Below, in pieces: positions 58,286-64,000 of a stretch of DNA of 64,000 bases. Positions within the stretch are counted from its first letter, which is position 1. The number at the start of each line of letters is the position of its first letter. Location of the stretch: positions 3,168,001 through 3,232,000 of the forward strand of contig OY761614.1 of assembly GCA_963664825.1 (NCBI GenBank), given 5' to 3'. The position numbers were made by a program, and so were the translations under genes. The notes under the pieces are model-generated. The model was not told the origin of the DNA, made no database searches, and worked only from the letters and a program-made list of their open reading frames with translations. The DNA is from an uncultured Holophaga sp. Lineage in GTDB: Bacteria; Acidobacteriota; Holophagae; Holophagales; Holophagaceae.

Positions 58286-58996
58286 ATGACAACTCCGAAA
58301 CAAGTCGTTATCGCTGGCGCCACCGGTCTCATCGGCCGCGAGCTGGTCCGGCAGCTCCACGAACGGCCCGATGTGGCCTTCACGGCCCTGGTGCGGAAGG
58401 AGGGGATCCTCTCGCAGCTCTCGGATCGCGTCCGGGAAGTGCGCTTCGACTTTGAGGATCCGGCCTCCTACGCCCGCATCGGCACGGAGATCCCCTGCGA
58501 TGTCCTGCTCTGCGCCCTCGGCACCACCTTGAAGAAGGCGGGCAGCCGGGAGGCCTTCCGGAAGGTGGATCTCGAGATGCCCGAGGCTCTCATCGAGAGG
58601 GCCGCTACGCTGGAATCCCGGCCGATCTTCGGGCTCGTCAGCGCCGCGGGAGCCGGTCACCCCAGGGGCTTCTACCTCCAGACCAAGGCCGAGGTGGAGA
58701 AGGCCCTCCTGGATTCAGGACTGCCCTACATCATCCTGCGGCCTTCCCTCCTCATGGGGGACCGGAAGGAATTCCGCCTGGCGGAAAGGCTCACGCTCCT
58801 ATTCCTGGCCAAGCCTTTCCTGGCCCTGGCCCGGACCTTCGCGCCGCACTCCAAGCTCGTCTGGAAATATGCCCCCATCCAGGGTGCCAAGGTGGCGGAA
58901 ACCCTCCTGCGCTATTGCGTCGACGAGCCCATCCATGCCCAGGGGCGCGTAATCAGCGGCATCGCGCTCCACCACCCGATCCTGGATCTGGACTAA
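58286..58996 (+). CDS. NAD(P)-binding Rossmann protein (YraR/TIP30-like)
   Basis: AGATGLIG, CALGTT.KKAGS, FYLQTK, RPSLL.G.R. Confidence 0.82.
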   Translation: MTTPKQVVIAGATGLIGRELVRQLHERPDVAFTALVRKEGILSQLSDRVREVRFDFEDPASYARIGTEIPCDVLLCALGTTLKKAGSREAFRKVDLEMPEALIERAATLESRPIFGLVSAAGAGHPRGFYLQTKAEVEKALLDSGLPYIILRPSLLMGDRKEFRLAERLTLLFLAKPFLALARTFAPHSKLVWKYAPIQGAKVAETLLRYCVDEPIHAQGRVISGIALHHPILDLD

Positions 58997-58997
58997 A

Positions 58998-59219
58998 TCA
59001 GACGCTCCAGTGGTTCGAAGGCGGCGCGGGGAAGCTCCGGCTCTTCCGGCCACGGGCCAACAGCTCGCTAAGCAGGACCTTGAGCCCCATGTCCACGGAG
59101 ATGCGAAGGGCCTCGTCCCGGTCACAGGGATATCCGGGCTCGACCTCCCGGAGCAGGAGCAGGAGCGCGTCCAGGCGGTCGAGGGTGCGCTGGTCCAACT
59201 GGACGCCGACGTTTCCCAT
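58998..59219 (-). CDS. Small hypothetical protein, ribbon-helix-helix-like
   Basis: ATG at 59219 preceded by AAGGGAG; MGNVGVQLDQRTLDRLDAL...RDEALRISVDMGL has a beta-helix-helix pattern. Confidence 0.5.
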   Translation of the reverse strand: MGNVGVQLDQRTLDRLDALLLLLREVEPGYPCDRDEALRISVDMGLKVLLSELLARGRKSRSFPAPPSNHWSV

Positions 59220-59331
59220 GGAACTCCCTTCCCCCGGATCGCACCAGGCTTCTGGGGATACGGAATAGGTGGCGTCGAGTTTAGCAATGTTCCCGAAAAG
59301 GGCCACTGGATTGAAGGCCCTTATGAAAAAA

Positions 59332-60714
59332 TCAGGCTCCTCCCAGGGCCATCTCCTCCAGGAGGATCGAAAGCCCGGCCTGGCTTCCATACCAGCGCAG
59401 ATCATTGCCCAGGGCCACGATGCGCGTGATGAAATCCCGCAGATTGCCTGCGAAGGTGAGGCGGTCCACGGCCTCGCAGAGGACCCCGTCGCGGATCCGA
59501 AGGCCCGAGGCGCCCACGCTGAGGTCCCCCGAGACCGGATCCACCGTATGCAGGCCCATGATCTCCGTGATGAGAACGCCGCCCTCGGCCAGGCGGTAGA
59601 GGGCTTCCACACTCTGGCTCCCGGCCTCGGGGAAGAGATTGAAGGTCGTCACACCGGGATTGCTGCCCATGCCCCTGCCGGCGCTGGCCGTGGGCGCACA
59701 TCCCATCTCGGCGGACGTCTTCAGGGTGTGGAGGTAGGTCTTGAGCACACCCTTTTCCAGCAGCACATTGCGCCGTGTGGGCAGGCCCTCGCCATCCCAG
59801 GGTTCAGAGCCCAGGCCCGCGCGCCCATCGGGGAAGACCAGGCGACCATCATCGATGAGGGTGAGCAGGGGGGAGGCGATGGGCTGTCCCAGTTTGCCCG
59901 CGAAGAGGCTCCGCTCCTTGAGCACGGCCTCGGCCGAGAGCATGCCGGCGATGAGCCCCAGCAGATCCACGGCCACTTCCGGGTGCAGCACCACGGGATA
60001 CTTCCCGGAGGGCAGGGCCTTGGGGTTGAGCTTGCGCTCGCCCTTTTCTGCGGCCTCCCTTCCGATGGCGGCCAGATCGAGGGCCCCAGGGTGGCGCCCC
60101 ACGTCCCAGTGCCAGGCGGCCTGGCGATCTTCGCCATCCTGCACGGCCAGTTCGATGGAGGCCGAACAGGAGCTTCCCAGATCGGTGGCCCTCACTCCCT
60201 TTTGCGTGAGGAGCAGGGTGGCGCCCGCCCCATCGGCCCAGGCCGATTCCCGGATGGCGGAGACCTTCGAGGAAGCCTTCCGAGCCTCGGTTTCCAGCGC
60301 AAGGGCTCGCGCGATGCGCTCCTCGGGGCTCAGGGCCTCGGCCCGTGCATCGTAGCGGATGGGCAGGTCATCGGCACCCGAGGGTTCCGCCTGGCGCTGC
60401 CAGGGATCCTCGTCCCCCAGGGCTGATATCTCCCAGGCCTGGCGGAAGAGGTCGTTGAAATTTTCCCGGGAGAGATCGGTGGTGGTGGCGATGCCCGTGC
60501 GACCGCCCCGCAGGACGCGCACACCCAGGCCTCCGCGCTTGCTGGTGCTGAGGTCCTCCAGGGCGCCATTCTGGACCTTGGCCTTGCGGCTCCGGGAAAC
60601 GGAGACGAAGGCTTCGGCCCCATCGGCCCCCATCTGGCAGGCGTGGCGGAGGGCATCCTGGAGGCGCTGTTCCAGGGGTTCGGAGATGAAGGAGCGGAAG
60701 ACGGATTCGGACAT
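59332..60714 (-). CDS. pmbA: PmbA/TldE subunit of the TldDE protease
   Basis: GLGVRV, WDGEGLP, TFNL, VSGDLSVGASG, TFAGNL; lacks HExxH. Confidence 0.9.
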   Translation of the reverse strand: MSESVFRSFISEPLEQRLQDALRHACQMGADGAEAFVSVSRSRKAKVQNGALEDLSTSKRGGLGVRVLRGGRTGIATTTDLSRENFNDLFRQAWEISALGDEDPWQRQAEPSGADDLPIRYDARAEALSPEERIARALALETEARKASSKVSAIRESAWADGAGATLLLTQKGVRATDLGSSCSASIELAVQDGEDRQAAWHWDVGRHPGALDLAAIGREAAEKGERKLNPKALPSGKYPVVLHPEVAVDLLGLIAGMLSAEAVLKERSLFAGKLGQPIASPLLTLIDDGRLVFPDGRAGLGSEPWDGEGLPTRRNVLLEKGVLKTYLHTLKTSAEMGCAPTASAGRGMGSNPGVTTFNLFPEAGSQSVEALYRLAEGGVLITEIMGLHTVDPVSGDLSVGASGLRIRDGVLCEAVDRLTFAGNLRDFITRIVALGNDLRWYGSQAGLSILLEEMALGGA

Positions 60715-61235
60715 CAGGGCAGGGCCTCGCGAAGGCCTTTCTGGTAGGCCTGATAGGTGGTGGCGTCGAAGCAGACCAGGAAGACCTTCTCGAGGATGGG
60801 GTTCTTCTGGAGGAAGGCCAGGATGCTCCGGATGGCGATGGGGGCCGCCACGTCCAAAGGGATCTGGGGCTGGCGCCCACTGCCCAGGCTGGGGAAGGCG
60901 AGAGTACGCATCCCCTGTTTCTGGGCGAGCATCAAGGCCTGGGTATAGCAGGCCGCCAGGATCTCGGGTTCCCCGTGGGCGCCGTCCATCCAGGTGGGGG
61001 CCACCGTGTGGATGACGGACTGGGCCCGGAGCTGGTAGCCCGGCGTGAGCCGCACCTCGCCAGGCTCGCAGCCTTCCAGCTTCGCGCAGGCCTGGGCCAG
61101 GGCGGGACCAGCCGCGGCGTGGACGGCCTTGTGGACAGGGCCGCCATCCAGCAGCGTGGTGTCCGTGGAATTCACCAGGGCATCGACCTCCATGGCGGTG
61201 ATATCGCCGAGTTGGAGCTGGATTCGGGAAGTCAT
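60714..61235 (-). CDS. Macro domain protein with a degenerate active site
   Basis: GDIT..VDALVN, AAAGPAL..C, TPGYQL.A..VIHTVAP, AFPSLGSG. Confidence 0.85.
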   Translation of the reverse strand: MTSRIQLQLGDITAMEVDALVNSTDTTLLDGGPVHKAVHAAAGPALAQACAKLEGCEPGEVRLTPGYQLRAQSVIHTVAPTWMDGAHGEPEILAACYTQALMLAQKQGMRTLAFPSLGSGRQPQIPLDVAAPIAIRSILAFLQKNPILEKVFLVCFDATTYQAYQKGLREALP

Positions 61236-61269
61236 GGCTGATCCTCTGGGAGGGAAGGGCGAATGTCCA

Positions 61270-63351
61270 TCAGATCACGCTGGGGAGGGCTTCGGCCGTG
61301 CCCCCCACCACCAGTGCCGGGCACAGGATGGTCGGCAATGCGTCGGAGACGGGCACCCCCTGGCCGTCCTTGCCGCAGGTGCCGATATCGAAGTGGTGCA
61401 GATCCGAGCCGATCCGGTGGAGCTGTTTCAGCACCTCGGGCCCGCAGCCGCTGAGGGTGGCGTTCTTCACGGGGTACTGGACCTCGCCCTTCTCGACCCA
61501 GAAGCCTTCGGTCACCTGGAAGACGAAATTGCCCGTCACCGTATCCACCTGGCCGCCCCCCATGTGGGTCACCAGCAGGCCGCGGTCCAGGCTCTGCAGG
61601 ATCGCTTCGGGCGTTTCATGGCCTGGCGCCAGGAAGGTATTCCGCATGCGGGGGATGGGCAGGTGGCGATAGCTCTCCCGGCGCCCGCTGCCCGTGGGTT
61701 CAACCCCCATGCGGCGGGCCGTCTTGCGGGACTGGAGGTAGCGCTTCAGGATGCCATTCTCGATGAGGACCACCCGCTGGGAGGGTTGACCCTCGTCGTC
61801 CACCGCCGCGCTGCCCCGTCGGTGGGGCAGGGTGCCGTCATCGATGATGGTCACACCTTCACTTGCCACCCGCTGCCCCAGCTTGCCGGCGAAGGCGCTC
61901 ATGCCCGCCAGGGCGAGATCGGCTTCCAGGCCGTGGCCGCAGGCCTCGTGGATCATGGTGCCCCCTGCGCTGCTGGCGAGGATCACCGGAAAGGTGCCCG
62001 CGGGGGCGGGACAGGCCGAGAGGGCCTGGATGGCAAGCCTCACGGCCTCTTCCACCGTGTGGGCCACGGCTTCTTTCGTGAAGAGCTCGAAGCCCCGACT
62101 CTCCCCCAGGGCCTGGTAGCCCGTCTGAAGCTGCTCCCCGGCCCCCGCTGTGACATTGAGGCGGAAGACGCTCTGCACGCGGCAATCCTCCACGCGTTCC
62201 GTGCGCCAGGCCCCTTCCTTGCGCTCCGCCGAAGCGATCCAGATGCGCTGGGTGCTATCCCCATAGCCCACGGCCACCTGGCGGATGGCCCCTGGCAGCA
62301 GGGATTCCCCGCGACTCCGAGCCAGGGCCTCGGCGCCCTTCACCAGGGCCACCTTCTCGCTCAAGGGCACCTCGGCGGGATCCCGCTCGATGGGGCTCGG
62401 CGTAGGATAATGGAAGGCATCCAGTTCGGGTAGGAGCGCCGCGGGAGCCGCGCCGGGAGCGGCCAGCATCCGGGCGGCCTCCAATAGTTCGGGCAGGGAA
62501 GGAGCGATGAGATCGGCGAAGCGGGTGGTCTCCCCTTCCATGAGGCGCAGGCTGGCGCCGAAGGTCTCGCTGGAGAGCACGTCCTCCATGCGGCCATCGT
62601 CCATGCCCAATCCACAGGCCCGGCGCTGTTCCACGAAGAGTTCGGCGTAGTCCCCGCCTTTGGAAAGCAGGGTCTCGAGCACTTCGTGGAATTCTTGGGG
62701 CCGGAATGGGGCAGGCATGGGGGCCCTCCAGATGCGGCCGCGCCGCAGCCTCCAGTCTGACAGAAGCCGGGCCTCGGCCTCCCTCAGGAAGTCCGTAAGA
62801 TCCCGGCCATCGTTGAGGATGAGGAGATCTCCATGCAGGGCCTTCTCGGCGGAGGTGGACTGGGCCTGGAGGCGGGTACGGACCTGGGCTGCTCCCAGGC
62901 CGTCCCGAGAGAGGACCCGTTGGATGCGCAAGGGCTCCGGCGCCTCCACGACCCAGAGGGCGTCGAAGTGGTGGCCCTTCCCCCCCTCGATCCAGAGGGC
63001 CGCGTCCAGGATGGCGCCCTTCGTCTCTCGTGGCAGCGCCGCCAGCCGGCTCGCGATGCGGGCCTCGATCCTGGGGTGGAGGAGGGCCTCCAGGCGCGCG
63101 CGCAGGGCGGGTTCCCCGAAGGCGCAGGCGCCTAAGGCGGCGCGATCCAGTGTGCCATCGGCGGCTAGGATTTCTGCACCGAAGGTCTGGACCAGGGCTT
63201 GGAGCCCCTCCGTGCACGGCGCCACCACCTCCCGGGCCACCTGATCGGCGTCGATGACGACCCAGCCCCGCTGGGCCATGAATCGAGCGATGAAGCTCTT
63301 GCCGGAGGCGATGCCCCCCGTGAGGCCGAGGATGGGGAAGGGATGGTCCAT
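61270..63351 (-). CDS. coaE-tldD: In-frame fusion of dephospho-CoA kinase (CoaE, N-terminal) and TldD metalloprotease (C-terminal)
   Basis: GLTGGIASGKS, DAD..AREVV, LDRAALG, LEALLHP; no stop before GGDYAELFVE..HEACGHGLEAD..DDEG..PRMRNTF..GGGQV..GTCGKDGQ.VPVS. Internal GGAGG-6nt-ATG at 62718. Confidence 0.88.
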   Translation of the reverse strand: MDHPFPILGLTGGIASGKSFIARFMAQRGWVVIDADQVAREVVAPCTEGLQALVQTFGAEILAADGTLDRAALGACAFGEPALRARLEALLHPRIEARIASRLAALPRETKGAILDAALWIEGGKGHHFDALWVVEAPEPLRIQRVLSRDGLGAAQVRTRLQAQSTSAEKALHGDLLILNDGRDLTDFLREAEARLLSDWRLRRGRIWRAPMPAPFRPQEFHEVLETLLSKGGDYAELFVEQRRACGLGMDDGRMEDVLSSETFGASLRLMEGETTRFADLIAPSLPELLEAARMLAAPGAAPAALLPELDAFHYPTPSPIERDPAEVPLSEKVALVKGAEALARSRGESLLPGAIRQVAVGYGDSTQRIWIASAERKEGAWRTERVEDCRVQSVFRLNVTAGAGEQLQTGYQALGESRGFELFTKEAVAHTVEEAVRLAIQALSACPAPAGTFPVILASSAGGTMIHEACGHGLEADLALAGMSAFAGKLGQRVASEGVTIIDDGTLPHRRGSAAVDDEGQPSQRVVLIENGILKRYLQSRKTARRMGVEPTGSGRRESYRHLPIPRMRNTFLAPGHETPEAILQSLDRGLLVTHMGGGQVDTVTGNFVFQVTEGFWVEKGEVQYPVKNATLSGCGPEVLKQLHRIGSDLHHFDIGTCGKDGQGVPVSDALPTILCPALVVGGTAEALPSVI

Positions 63352-63385
63352 GGGGAAAGGATACGGCCCCGTTCCACACCCTTCC

Positions 63386-63418
63386 AAAATGAAATCGCGC
63401 CCTGGGGCGCGATTTCAT
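63386..63418 (-). terminator. Intrinsic terminator after the sdhB/frdB gene
   Basis: 13-bp stem ATGAAATCGCGCC/GGCGCGATTTCAT followed by TTT on the minus strand. Confidence 0.7.
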
Positions 63419-63446
63419 GGGCTTGAGTCGGGATCAGGTTGGCGTG

Positions 63447-64000
63447 CTAGGACCTATTGGTCAGGCTCGCCCAGATGAAGTCCCTGTTCATGCGGGCGAT
63501 ATTCTCGAGTTTGATGGACTTGGGGCAGGCGGCTTCGCATTCGCCGTGGTTGGTGCAGGTGCCGAATTCCTCCTTGTCCATCTGGGCGACCATGTCCTTG
63601 ACCCGGGTGTAGCGCTCGGGCTGGCCCTGGGGCAGGAGGGCCAACTGGCTGATCTTGGCCGAGACGAAGAGCATGGCGCTGGCATTGGGACATGCCGCCA
63701 CGCAGGCCCCGCATCCGATGCAGGCGGCGGCGTCCATGGCCAAGTCAGCGCAGGTCTTCTTCACGGGGATGGCGTTGCCATCCGGGGCCGATCCCGTCGG
63801 GACGCTGACGAAGCCACCCGCGGCGATGATGCGGTCGAAGGCGCCCCGGTCCACGATCAGGTCCTTGATCACCGGGAAGGCCTTGCCCCGGAAGGGCTCG
63901 ATGGTGATCGTATCGCCGTTTTGGAAACTGCGCATGTGGAGCTGGCAGGTGGTGGTGCGCTGCCGGGGGCCGTGGGGCCTGCCGTTGATGACCAGGCCGC
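63447..64000 (-). CDS. sdhB: Succinate dehydrogenase/fumarate reductase iron-sulfur subunit, 5' end outside the window
   Basis: [45 protein letters not shown]. Confidence 0.9.

Follow-up and report, generated by a model that had tools for sequence, protein, structure and literature searches.

We analysed a 64,000-nucleotide (nt) stretch of contig OY761614.1 (positions 3,168,001 to 3,232,000; assembly GCA_963664825.1) from an uncultured Holophaga sp., hereafter called the window. Its subject here is a minus-strand gene in which dephospho-coenzyme A (CoA) kinase, CoaE, and the protease subunit TldD are encoded in one reading frame, followed by a macrodomain gene and by pmbA, which encodes the partner subunit of TldD. 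The features of the fused gene are as follows (window coordinates; aa, amino acids; ORF, open reading frame).

61270..63351, minus strand: fused coaE-tldD gene encoding a protein of 693 aa and 74.4 kDa (by ORF, Pfam and genome tblastn).
62719..63351, minus strand: CoaE part, aa 1-211, with the Walker A residues G12, K18 and S19, the D34-A-D36 motif and a terminal helix at 186-207.
61273..62718, minus strand: TldD part, aa 212-693, with H468-E469-H473, C659, K661, E476, D478 and R568 (aligned to 5NJ5).
63358..63363, minus strand: -10-like hexamer TATCCT, 6 nt 5' of the coaE ATG.
62754..62764, minus strand: extended -10-like element (TG at 62762-62761, hexamer CAGACT at 62759-62754), 35 nt 5' of Met212.
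62725..62729, minus strand: putative nested Shine-Dalgarno sequence GGAGG, whose GGAG core lies 7 nt 5' of the ATG; codon 209 is AGA/AGG/AGY/AAG.
62716..62718, minus strand: internal in-frame ATG (Met212), the candidate start of a free TldD of 482 aa and 51.4 kDa.

The frame running from 63351 to 61270 was translated into 693 residues without a single stop. Pfam assigned residues 7-182 to CoaE (E 8e-47) and residues 236-684 to PmbA_TldD domains 1-3, and tblastn of the genome revealed a single copy each of coaE, tldD and pmbA as well as one clear macrodomain gene, all at this locus. Two DNA contigs span the join with no differences from the window, one from run X3 (61936-63500), which is possibly the source sample, and the other from run X5 (62698-63500), which belongs to a different study. 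From its sequence and spacing, the TATCCT hexamer is probably a leaderless promoter of the fused gene.

A query covering the join (aa 120-300) was searched against 133 Holophagaceae genomes, including this one, and was matched end to end, with no stop, in 119. The other 14 consist of two assembly breaks, three genomes of genus g4 that match in the CoaE part only, one fragment at a contig end and eight genomes without a match. Geothrix, Holophaga and Mesoterricola are the named relatives that carry the fusion. No true split form of coaE and tldD was found among the 133 genomes; G133 and G139, which had been considered as split forms, were rejected as assembly artefacts (an NN gap in the former and many indels in the latter). 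A PF01121 search of five of the genomes without a match (G010, G087, G114, G130 and G145) also yielded none, and these five are therefore uninformative on the fusion state. A sequencing error or a strain-specific stop loss is practically ruled out by the 119 genomes and the contig from the other study, and the CoaE-TldD fusion is genuine. On these points the preliminary description of this DNA, which had reported an uninterrupted frame joining a complete CoaE with an intact Walker A motif to a complete TldD, was borne out, both in the DNA contigs across the join and in the related genomes.

Outside the family, no fused match was obtained in 16 genomes of two sister families, and among the 150 of 280 CoaE matches listed for 251 sampled genomes of the phylum (a tally that includes G170, G194 and G283, which are marked unpublished), frames of at least 690 aa occur only in Holophagaceae. 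The best 150 hits in a 50% representative protein library include four proteins with both parts: P0121, which is typical, P0127, which is divergent, and P0194 and P0223, in which TldD is decayed. P0127 (673 aa, a single Joint Genome Institute record) is 41% and 37% identical in its two halves to those of the window protein and contains HEAVGH and a Cys motif. Its TldD falls within the Holophagaceae clade (96, long branch) and its CoaE outside, and no relatives of P0127 were found; judging from these sequences, it would be either a deep sister or an independent fusion.

The CoaE half scores 159.7 bits against PF01121 (cut-off 27) and 131.5 bits against TIGR00152 (cut-off 65.55). GGIASGKS satisfies the P-loop pattern GxxxxGKS/T, and a matching motif is present in 79 of the 80 related loci on which our comparisons of codons, motifs and neighbours rest. 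The DXD motif, whose Asp is catalytic according to the available part of PMC2765170, corresponds to D34-A-D36 and reads DAD in 72 loci and NAD in six, with no match in two. The best structural match is Protein Data Bank entry 6N39. The fused enzyme thus has the Walker A motif, DXD motif, lid arginines and fold common to CoaE (PF01121, TIGR00152); unlike a free CoaE, it has no stop of its own and its frame runs on into the protease. That this is the sole coaE copy in the genome argues for dephospho-CoA kinase activity of the fused protein. In a separate observation, P0277, P0278 and P0279 are other CoaE fusions, with PHP domains (PF02811, PF13263) or PF07072, and CoaE appears to be fusion-prone.

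AlphaFold, run on the 693 aa with a 127-row alignment, gave a mean predicted local distance difference test score (pLDDT) of 85 and a predicted template modelling score (pTM) of 0.83, and this pTM, although an indirect measure, suggests a fixed arrangement of CoaE and TldD, since TldD alone makes up 69% of the chain. Block means over residues 191-220 are 96, 89 and 89, which puts the join at about 89-96. The model contains the terminal CoaE helix at 186-207, and W200, R204 and W208, which form one helix face, are conserved in 80/80 loci, including those without the nested signals described below. The alignment is gap-free at aa 185-217. Foldseek matched each half on its own, one to 5NJ5 and the other to CoaE structures. 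CoaE is covalently tied to TldD and, according to the model, the connection is probably rigid.

In the TldD half, the metal-binding pattern HExxxH is represented by HEACGH at 468-473, and both HEACGH and GTCGK are present in 80/80 loci. In the alignment to 5NJ5, all of the residues H262, E263, H267, C454, K456, E270, D272 and R362 of Escherichia coli TldD, whose roles are given in the part of PMC5810440 available to us, have counterparts, and the fold matches 5NJ5 with a template modelling score of 0.85 by target length. The system therefore resembles E. coli TldD/TldE (5NJ5; same part of PMC5810440) in fold, active-site counterparts and the adjoining pmbA, and is unlike E. coli TldD in its N-terminal CoaE and its shorter plug-loop insertion: the E. 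coli plug loop has three acidic residues, and the four-residue insertion that supplies two of them, D218 and E220, is missing here. The score against the NCBIfam equivalog PRK10735 (309 bits) is below the cut-off (513 bits), so that the E. coli substrates cannot be assumed; by Pfam and fold the fused TldD belongs to the family without being the enterobacterial equivalog. Its partner gene is located downstream.

59332..60714, minus strand: pmbA/tldE, encoding the non-catalytic partner subunit of 460 aa (by profile matches).

The product lacks HExxxH, and pmbA lies 3' of the fusion in 73/80 loci, the other seven being cut off too close to tldD for it to be seen. Both active sites look intact, and the sequences predict a peptidase that acts as a heterodimer. 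Holophagaceae TldD did not group with TldD of the sister families in quick trees (approximately unbiased test, p 4e-6, for a group named after the first tree and with outgroups picked by similarity), and the tldD cassette may therefore derive from elsewhere.

Two further TldD loci are recorded here in their own right. P0123 (745 aa) combines TldD-like and PmbA-like stretches in a single chain that lacks some pieces, and may be a misassembly. In sister family f2, L112:1113-14041 carries on one strand genes for an M24 peptidase, tldD, tldE, dus, M48, S41, an acyl-CoA dehydrogenase, meaB, coaE and a deacetylase; this coaE, approximately 7-8 kb from tldD, was rejected as an ancestral link because it lies downstream, with genes between, and its tldD belongs to another lineage.

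The DNA at the join is itself constrained. The codon for Met212 is ATG in 76/80 loci and GTG in two, and codon 209 is AG- in 72/80 (a rare Arg codon, AGA or AGG, or Ser AGY), which yields GGAG. Further upstream, codons 196 and 198 are CTT and GCA/TCA in most loci, although these are rare here (frequencies 0.067, 0.052 and 0.028), and form part of the motif TG-n-CAnACT. In an analysis of synonymous constraint, codons 209, 198, 214 and 196 were the top four of 697 columns, with codon 209 ranked first; they scored 2.0-2.7, compared with 1.15 for the next column and a standard deviation of 0.35. All codon columns share one phylogeny, so that the ranking serves as an internal control.

The motifs found at the join are also those used at ordinary starts of this genome, as counted over 1,972 genes called by our own script. 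TAnnnT peaks 6 nt before the ATG (73 genes, compared with 2-23 at other gaps), TGnCAnnnT peaks at the same leaderless spacing of 6 nt (15 vs. 0-4), and GGAG peaks 5-8 nt before starts. A weight matrix built from 104 sites picked to match [CT]AnnnT placed the junction site best in the whole ORF in 71/80 loci and among the top three in 73/80. Both signals together precede 27 of the 1,972 gene starts and only four of the 12,461 internal in-frame ATGs, Met212 included. The three other internal ATGs with an extended -10 and GGAG (codons 177/638, 45/319 and 421/1056) represent nested or mis-called starts. In this genome (G000) as a whole, leaderless promoters seem common, with [CT]AnnnT 6 nt before the ATG in 104/1,972 genes, and an extended -10 whose position -12 is C (TGnCAnnnT) appears to be in use.

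Promoter-like element, GGAG and ATG occur together in 73/80 loci, and the ribosome site and ATG are intact in 74/80. In six loci of one clade, including a Mesoterricola record, the promoter and GGAG have been lost, along with the ATG in four of them; one further locus has lost the promoter alone. None of the 80 loci has kept the promoter while losing both GGAG and ATG. The nested signals are also lost, in part or whole, in G019, G013 and G009. Contigs of two metatranscriptome runs, X1 and X2, from a relative that is mostly 90-99% alike, contain tldD parts reaching 62721 and 62707 and no coaE; this fits an internal start, and we did not count it as evidence because both runs come from one study and one contig ends in adapter. 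A consensus sigma-70 scan of 58800-63600, which requires a -35 match, found no promoters, and the duplex energy of the nested ribosome site is in the top 4-5% of codons in 3/22 loci and at 17-78% in the rest. The sigma-54 consensus has TTGC at -12. A sigma-54 reading of CTGGCA was rejected by eye, as this -12 TTGC is absent and TGTCA is found in 21/80 loci. Taken from the sequence, a free TldD of 51.4 kDa is probably made beside the 74.4-kDa fusion.

Genes with nested in-frame products have precedents. IS50 tnp/inh encodes nested in-frame proteins from two promoters. In-frame internal starts are described for infB, clpB, mcrB, speA and arcB in the part of bioRxiv 10.1101/520783 available to us, and combine, as predicted for the present case, one frame, two nested proteins, an internal Shine-Dalgarno sequence and raised synonymous conservation. 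Unlike in those genes, the two products predicted here are the protease by itself and its fusion to the kinase, and the shorter one corresponds to the ancestral gene, which has a separate promoter-like element.

The protease half is not intact in every fusion. In G019 (P0280, L164:1709-3715), the fused TldD has neither HEACGH nor the Cys motif, and the CoaE attached to it remains intact; none of the nested signals is left, pmbA is out of the operon, two macrodomain genes remain, and another tldD-pmbA pair, in which an HExxGH motif is present, is located elsewhere. P0194 and P0223 also have an intact CoaE, 57-58% identical to that of the window, whereas their TldD halves (~20-36%) lack HExxxH, have shrunk by in-frame deletions without a stop and still end on the last strand. 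In a quick CoaE tree, these two are sisters and separate from G019, indicating that TldD has decayed at least twice. In each of these cases it is TldD that has died and CoaE that has remained intact. In P0194, P0223, P0271 and P0280, an intact CoaE is thus fused to a dead, shrinking TldD, a pseudo-protease passenger; a single-sequence fold of P0280 had a pLDDT of 38.5, too low to inform.

Between the fusion and pmbA lies a third gene.

60714..61235, minus strand: accessory macrodomain gene of a remodelled MacroD type, 173 aa, with the replacements N to D25, D to H35 and Y to Q122 and one inserted residue.

This gene begins 34 nt past the stop of the fusion (61235..60714) and, as already described, overlaps pmbA (60714..59332) by one base, in TGATG. 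Its residues D11, N22, G32 and H39 are kept; D11, in the GDIT motif, is presumably the adenine-binding Asp and is present in 27/27 aligned sequences. The counterpart of G38 is P33, and one residue is inserted in the phosphate loop. Compared with the MacroD/YmdB hydrolases in the available part of PMC5413906, the protein belongs to the same fold family and retains the adenine-binding Asp11, Asn22, Gly32 and His39, but unlike them it has the distal-ribose Asn, the catalytic Asp and the stacking Tyr replaced: N30, D40 and Y134 of OiMacroD, in a numbering that we mapped from that paper, correspond to D25, H35 and Q122, so that the hydrolase residues are not retained. Single mutants of OiMacroD N30 and D40 keep 14-28% efficiency (same part of PMC5413906), and the window macrodomain may therefore still have hydrolase activity. 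Because the new motifs are conserved across several genera, the gene represents a remodelled subfamily, not a pseudogene.

The occupancy of the tldD-pmbA slot is variable. Across the 80 loci, it contains no macrodomain gene in 40, the remodelled type in 15, an ordinary MacroD in 15, both in tandem in two and intermediates in two, six being not assessable; the slot is therefore empty in 40/74 assessable loci, and at least six changes have occurred on the tree. A macrodomain match was found in 69/133 family genomes and, with this query, in none of the other 64. Of the gene order tldD-macro-pmbA in the preliminary description, the position of pmbA is conserved in the related loci and that of the macrodomain gene is not. 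Ordinary and remodelled genes stand in tandem after tldD at L086:10073-10968, L109:10096-11143, L164:3715-4748 and L166:1738-2768, which suggests duplication followed by differential loss. In some loci the gap is an insertion hot spot, containing GxxExxY-type PD-(D/E)xK genes and short palindromic repeats (L054:10137-10520 with PF13366, L069, L070, L096, L099 and L081).

Considering all of these data, we regard it as somewhat probable that the coaE-tldD junction is frozen and gives two proteins, with TldD as the C-terminal partner of CoaE. A Holophagaceae ancestor would have had coaE directly 5' of a tldD-(macro)-pmbA cassette, with the cassette's promoter and its ribosome site reaching into the coaE end, and the coaE stop would then have been lost in frame. 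Transcription from the coaE promoter would yield the 74-kDa CoaE-TldD, the only dephospho-CoA kinase of the cell, and the retained internal promoter would yield free 51-kDa TldD together with PmbA; fused and free TldD could both pair with PmbA in a TldD/E shell of the usual kind. CoaE's terminal helix would pack through W200, R204 and W208 on TldD's N-terminal domain, and TldD would act as a folding or stability partner of the essential CoaE, with the two active sites largely independent. The nested ribosome site and ATG would let tldD survive an upstream stop, yet none was found, which suggests that the fusion is also kept as a protein. There is a parallel in Mycobacterium tuberculosis, whose CoaE needs its C-terminal partner domain for folding, although glutathione S-transferase can substitute for it (PMC2765170, available part). 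The mycobacterial CoaE-UPF0157 of the same source is likewise an essential CoaE with a C-terminal partner domain, the folding need being shown there and only proposed here; unlike UPF0157, the partner in the window is an entire catalytic subunit of a protease and has a nested start for itself.

Several points weigh against this interpretation. The linker as a whole is no more conserved than the CoaE core (pairwise identity 0.67 vs. 0.68), and W200, R204 and W208 may pack on CoaE itself. The weight matrix favours the [CT]AnnnT pattern because its sites were chosen to match it, and six of the seven promoter losses fall in one clade, the loci being kin. P0194 and P0223 are each represented by only one or two protein records, with no DNA, and the open frames of the decayed halves could serve to avoid polarity on the macrodomain gene and pgm. 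In addition, genus g4, with genomes of 0.9-1.2 Mb, has a stand-alone CoaE of 206-209 aa and of the same type (L114:5730-6359, L152:3575-4213), with no PF19289 match in 4/4 genomes and no TldD or PmbA match, indicating that the dependence of CoaE on TldD is not absolute. The g4 CoaE adjoins pgm in G011, and pgm lies downstream of pmbA in 58/80 loci; this suggests that the g4 state arose by deletion of the cassette, the alternative reading of the sequences being that it is ancestral.

The stand-alone g4 enzymes are also the first argument for a neutral frozen accident, which we consider possible though rather unlikely. Under this alternative, fusion and nested start are both real and neither half needs the other; the stop would have disappeared a single time without being regained, W200-W208 would serve CoaE alone, and polarity would keep the decayed frames open. 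It is in line with the observation that free CoaE has a length of 198-218 aa at 35 loci in other families of the phylum, so that helix 186-207 is the ordinary last helix of CoaE. The position of pgm downstream agrees with it, as does G019, which has no nested promoter and whose downstream genes would depend on the coaE transcript. However, a stop at codons 201-211 would be non-polar in the 74 loci with an intact ribosome site and ATG, and a linker codon is one base from a stop in 64/80 loci, whereas a stop is seen in none. The invariant linker length in all 80 loci and the high model confidence across the join likewise count against a neutral accident.

It has been proposed in the preliminary description that CoaE and the macrodomain are two adenine-nucleotide-binding modules that could couple TldDE proteolysis to CoA or ADP (adenosine diphosphate)-ribose status. 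In the corresponding mechanism, closure of the CoaE lid on dephospho-CoA and ATP (adenosine triphosphate) would open or block the TldD/E channel, and the macrodomain would add an ADP-ribose-like input. The rigid-looking AlphaFold model, the missing plug-loop insertion, which leaves room for another gate, and the conservation of the remodelled macrodomain motifs across several genera are compatible with such gating, and TldD should occur mainly as the fusion in the clade without nested signals. In most species, however, such a gate would not act on the free TldD that the nested start would supply. The macrodomain slot is patchy, as shown above, and G019 keeps macrodomain genes without a working TldD/E in the operon. 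TldD, and not CoaE, is the half that has decayed, and no coaE or macrodomain gene was found in the available flanks of 80 metagenome loci with a free tldD (54/96 scanned loci were at least 8 kb long). A ligand-linked protease therefore appears improbable, and the coupling as originally proposed was not supported. We give an equally low probability to a combined form, in which one gene provides two kinds of TldD/E at a ratio set by two promoters, the kinase-bearing kind being gated by CoaE lid closure in place of the plug loop and the macrodomain serving as an optional sensor for an ADP-linked ligand, for instance dephospho-CoA. If kinase-ligand gating were true, it would be the first metabolic input into TldD/E and would tie N-terminal proteolysis to CoA supply. 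Finally, it is very improbable that the full-length protein is a precursor cut in the basic linker into separate CoaE and TldD: the stretch 201-209 is Arg-rich, but the model shows it with confidence as a helix, surface loops are reportedly out of reach for TldD/E (PMC5810440, available part), and the nested start already explains free TldD.

No published CoaE-TldD fusion was found in the literature searched, which did not extend to subscription papers and most supplements, in agreement with the preliminary description, which knew of none. In the same literature, no relevant paper linked TldD with a macro domain or with dephospho-CoA kinase; the supplement of PMC4921024 gave no match, and bioRxiv 10.1101/2023.10.09.561551, in the part available, merely names TldD among peptidases. 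CoaE fusions and nested in-frame starts are thus already known, and the CoaE-TldD pairing is new in the literature searched.

The locus presents a family-wide case in which an essential cofactor enzyme is fused to a protease of which few normal substrates are known. It also shows how such a fusion may be tolerated, namely by the downstream gene keeping its promoter and start inside the upstream gene. Holophagaceae hold all stages, with the nested start kept or lost, the protease dead but attached, or the protease absent, and offer a test case for structural dependence versus drift in the locking of fusions, with Geothrix fermentans DSM 14018 and Holophaga foetida DSM 6591, neither of which has lost the nested signals, in culture. 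For annotation, database names read only 'dephospho-CoA kinase' or 'TldD protein', and the free TldD is not called.

One small gene remains at the end of the region.

58998..59219, minus strand: ribbon-helix-helix (RHH)-like small gene, 73 aa, with its own promoter-like and ribosome-site motifs.

It starts 112 nt after pmbA and resembles RHH clusters (Atlas look-alikes, a lead only), and no Pfam match was found for the 73-aa ORF. The gene exists as previously described, at 59219..58998, but not as part of the unit: it is present at the fusion locus in 0/80 loci and elsewhere in 10/30 relatives, at a distance of 253 kb in G007 and ~9 kb in G004. It is a chance neighbour, outside the conserved unit. 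DNA contigs of X3 and X5 match both ends of 58953-59223 in another context, skipping 164 bases.

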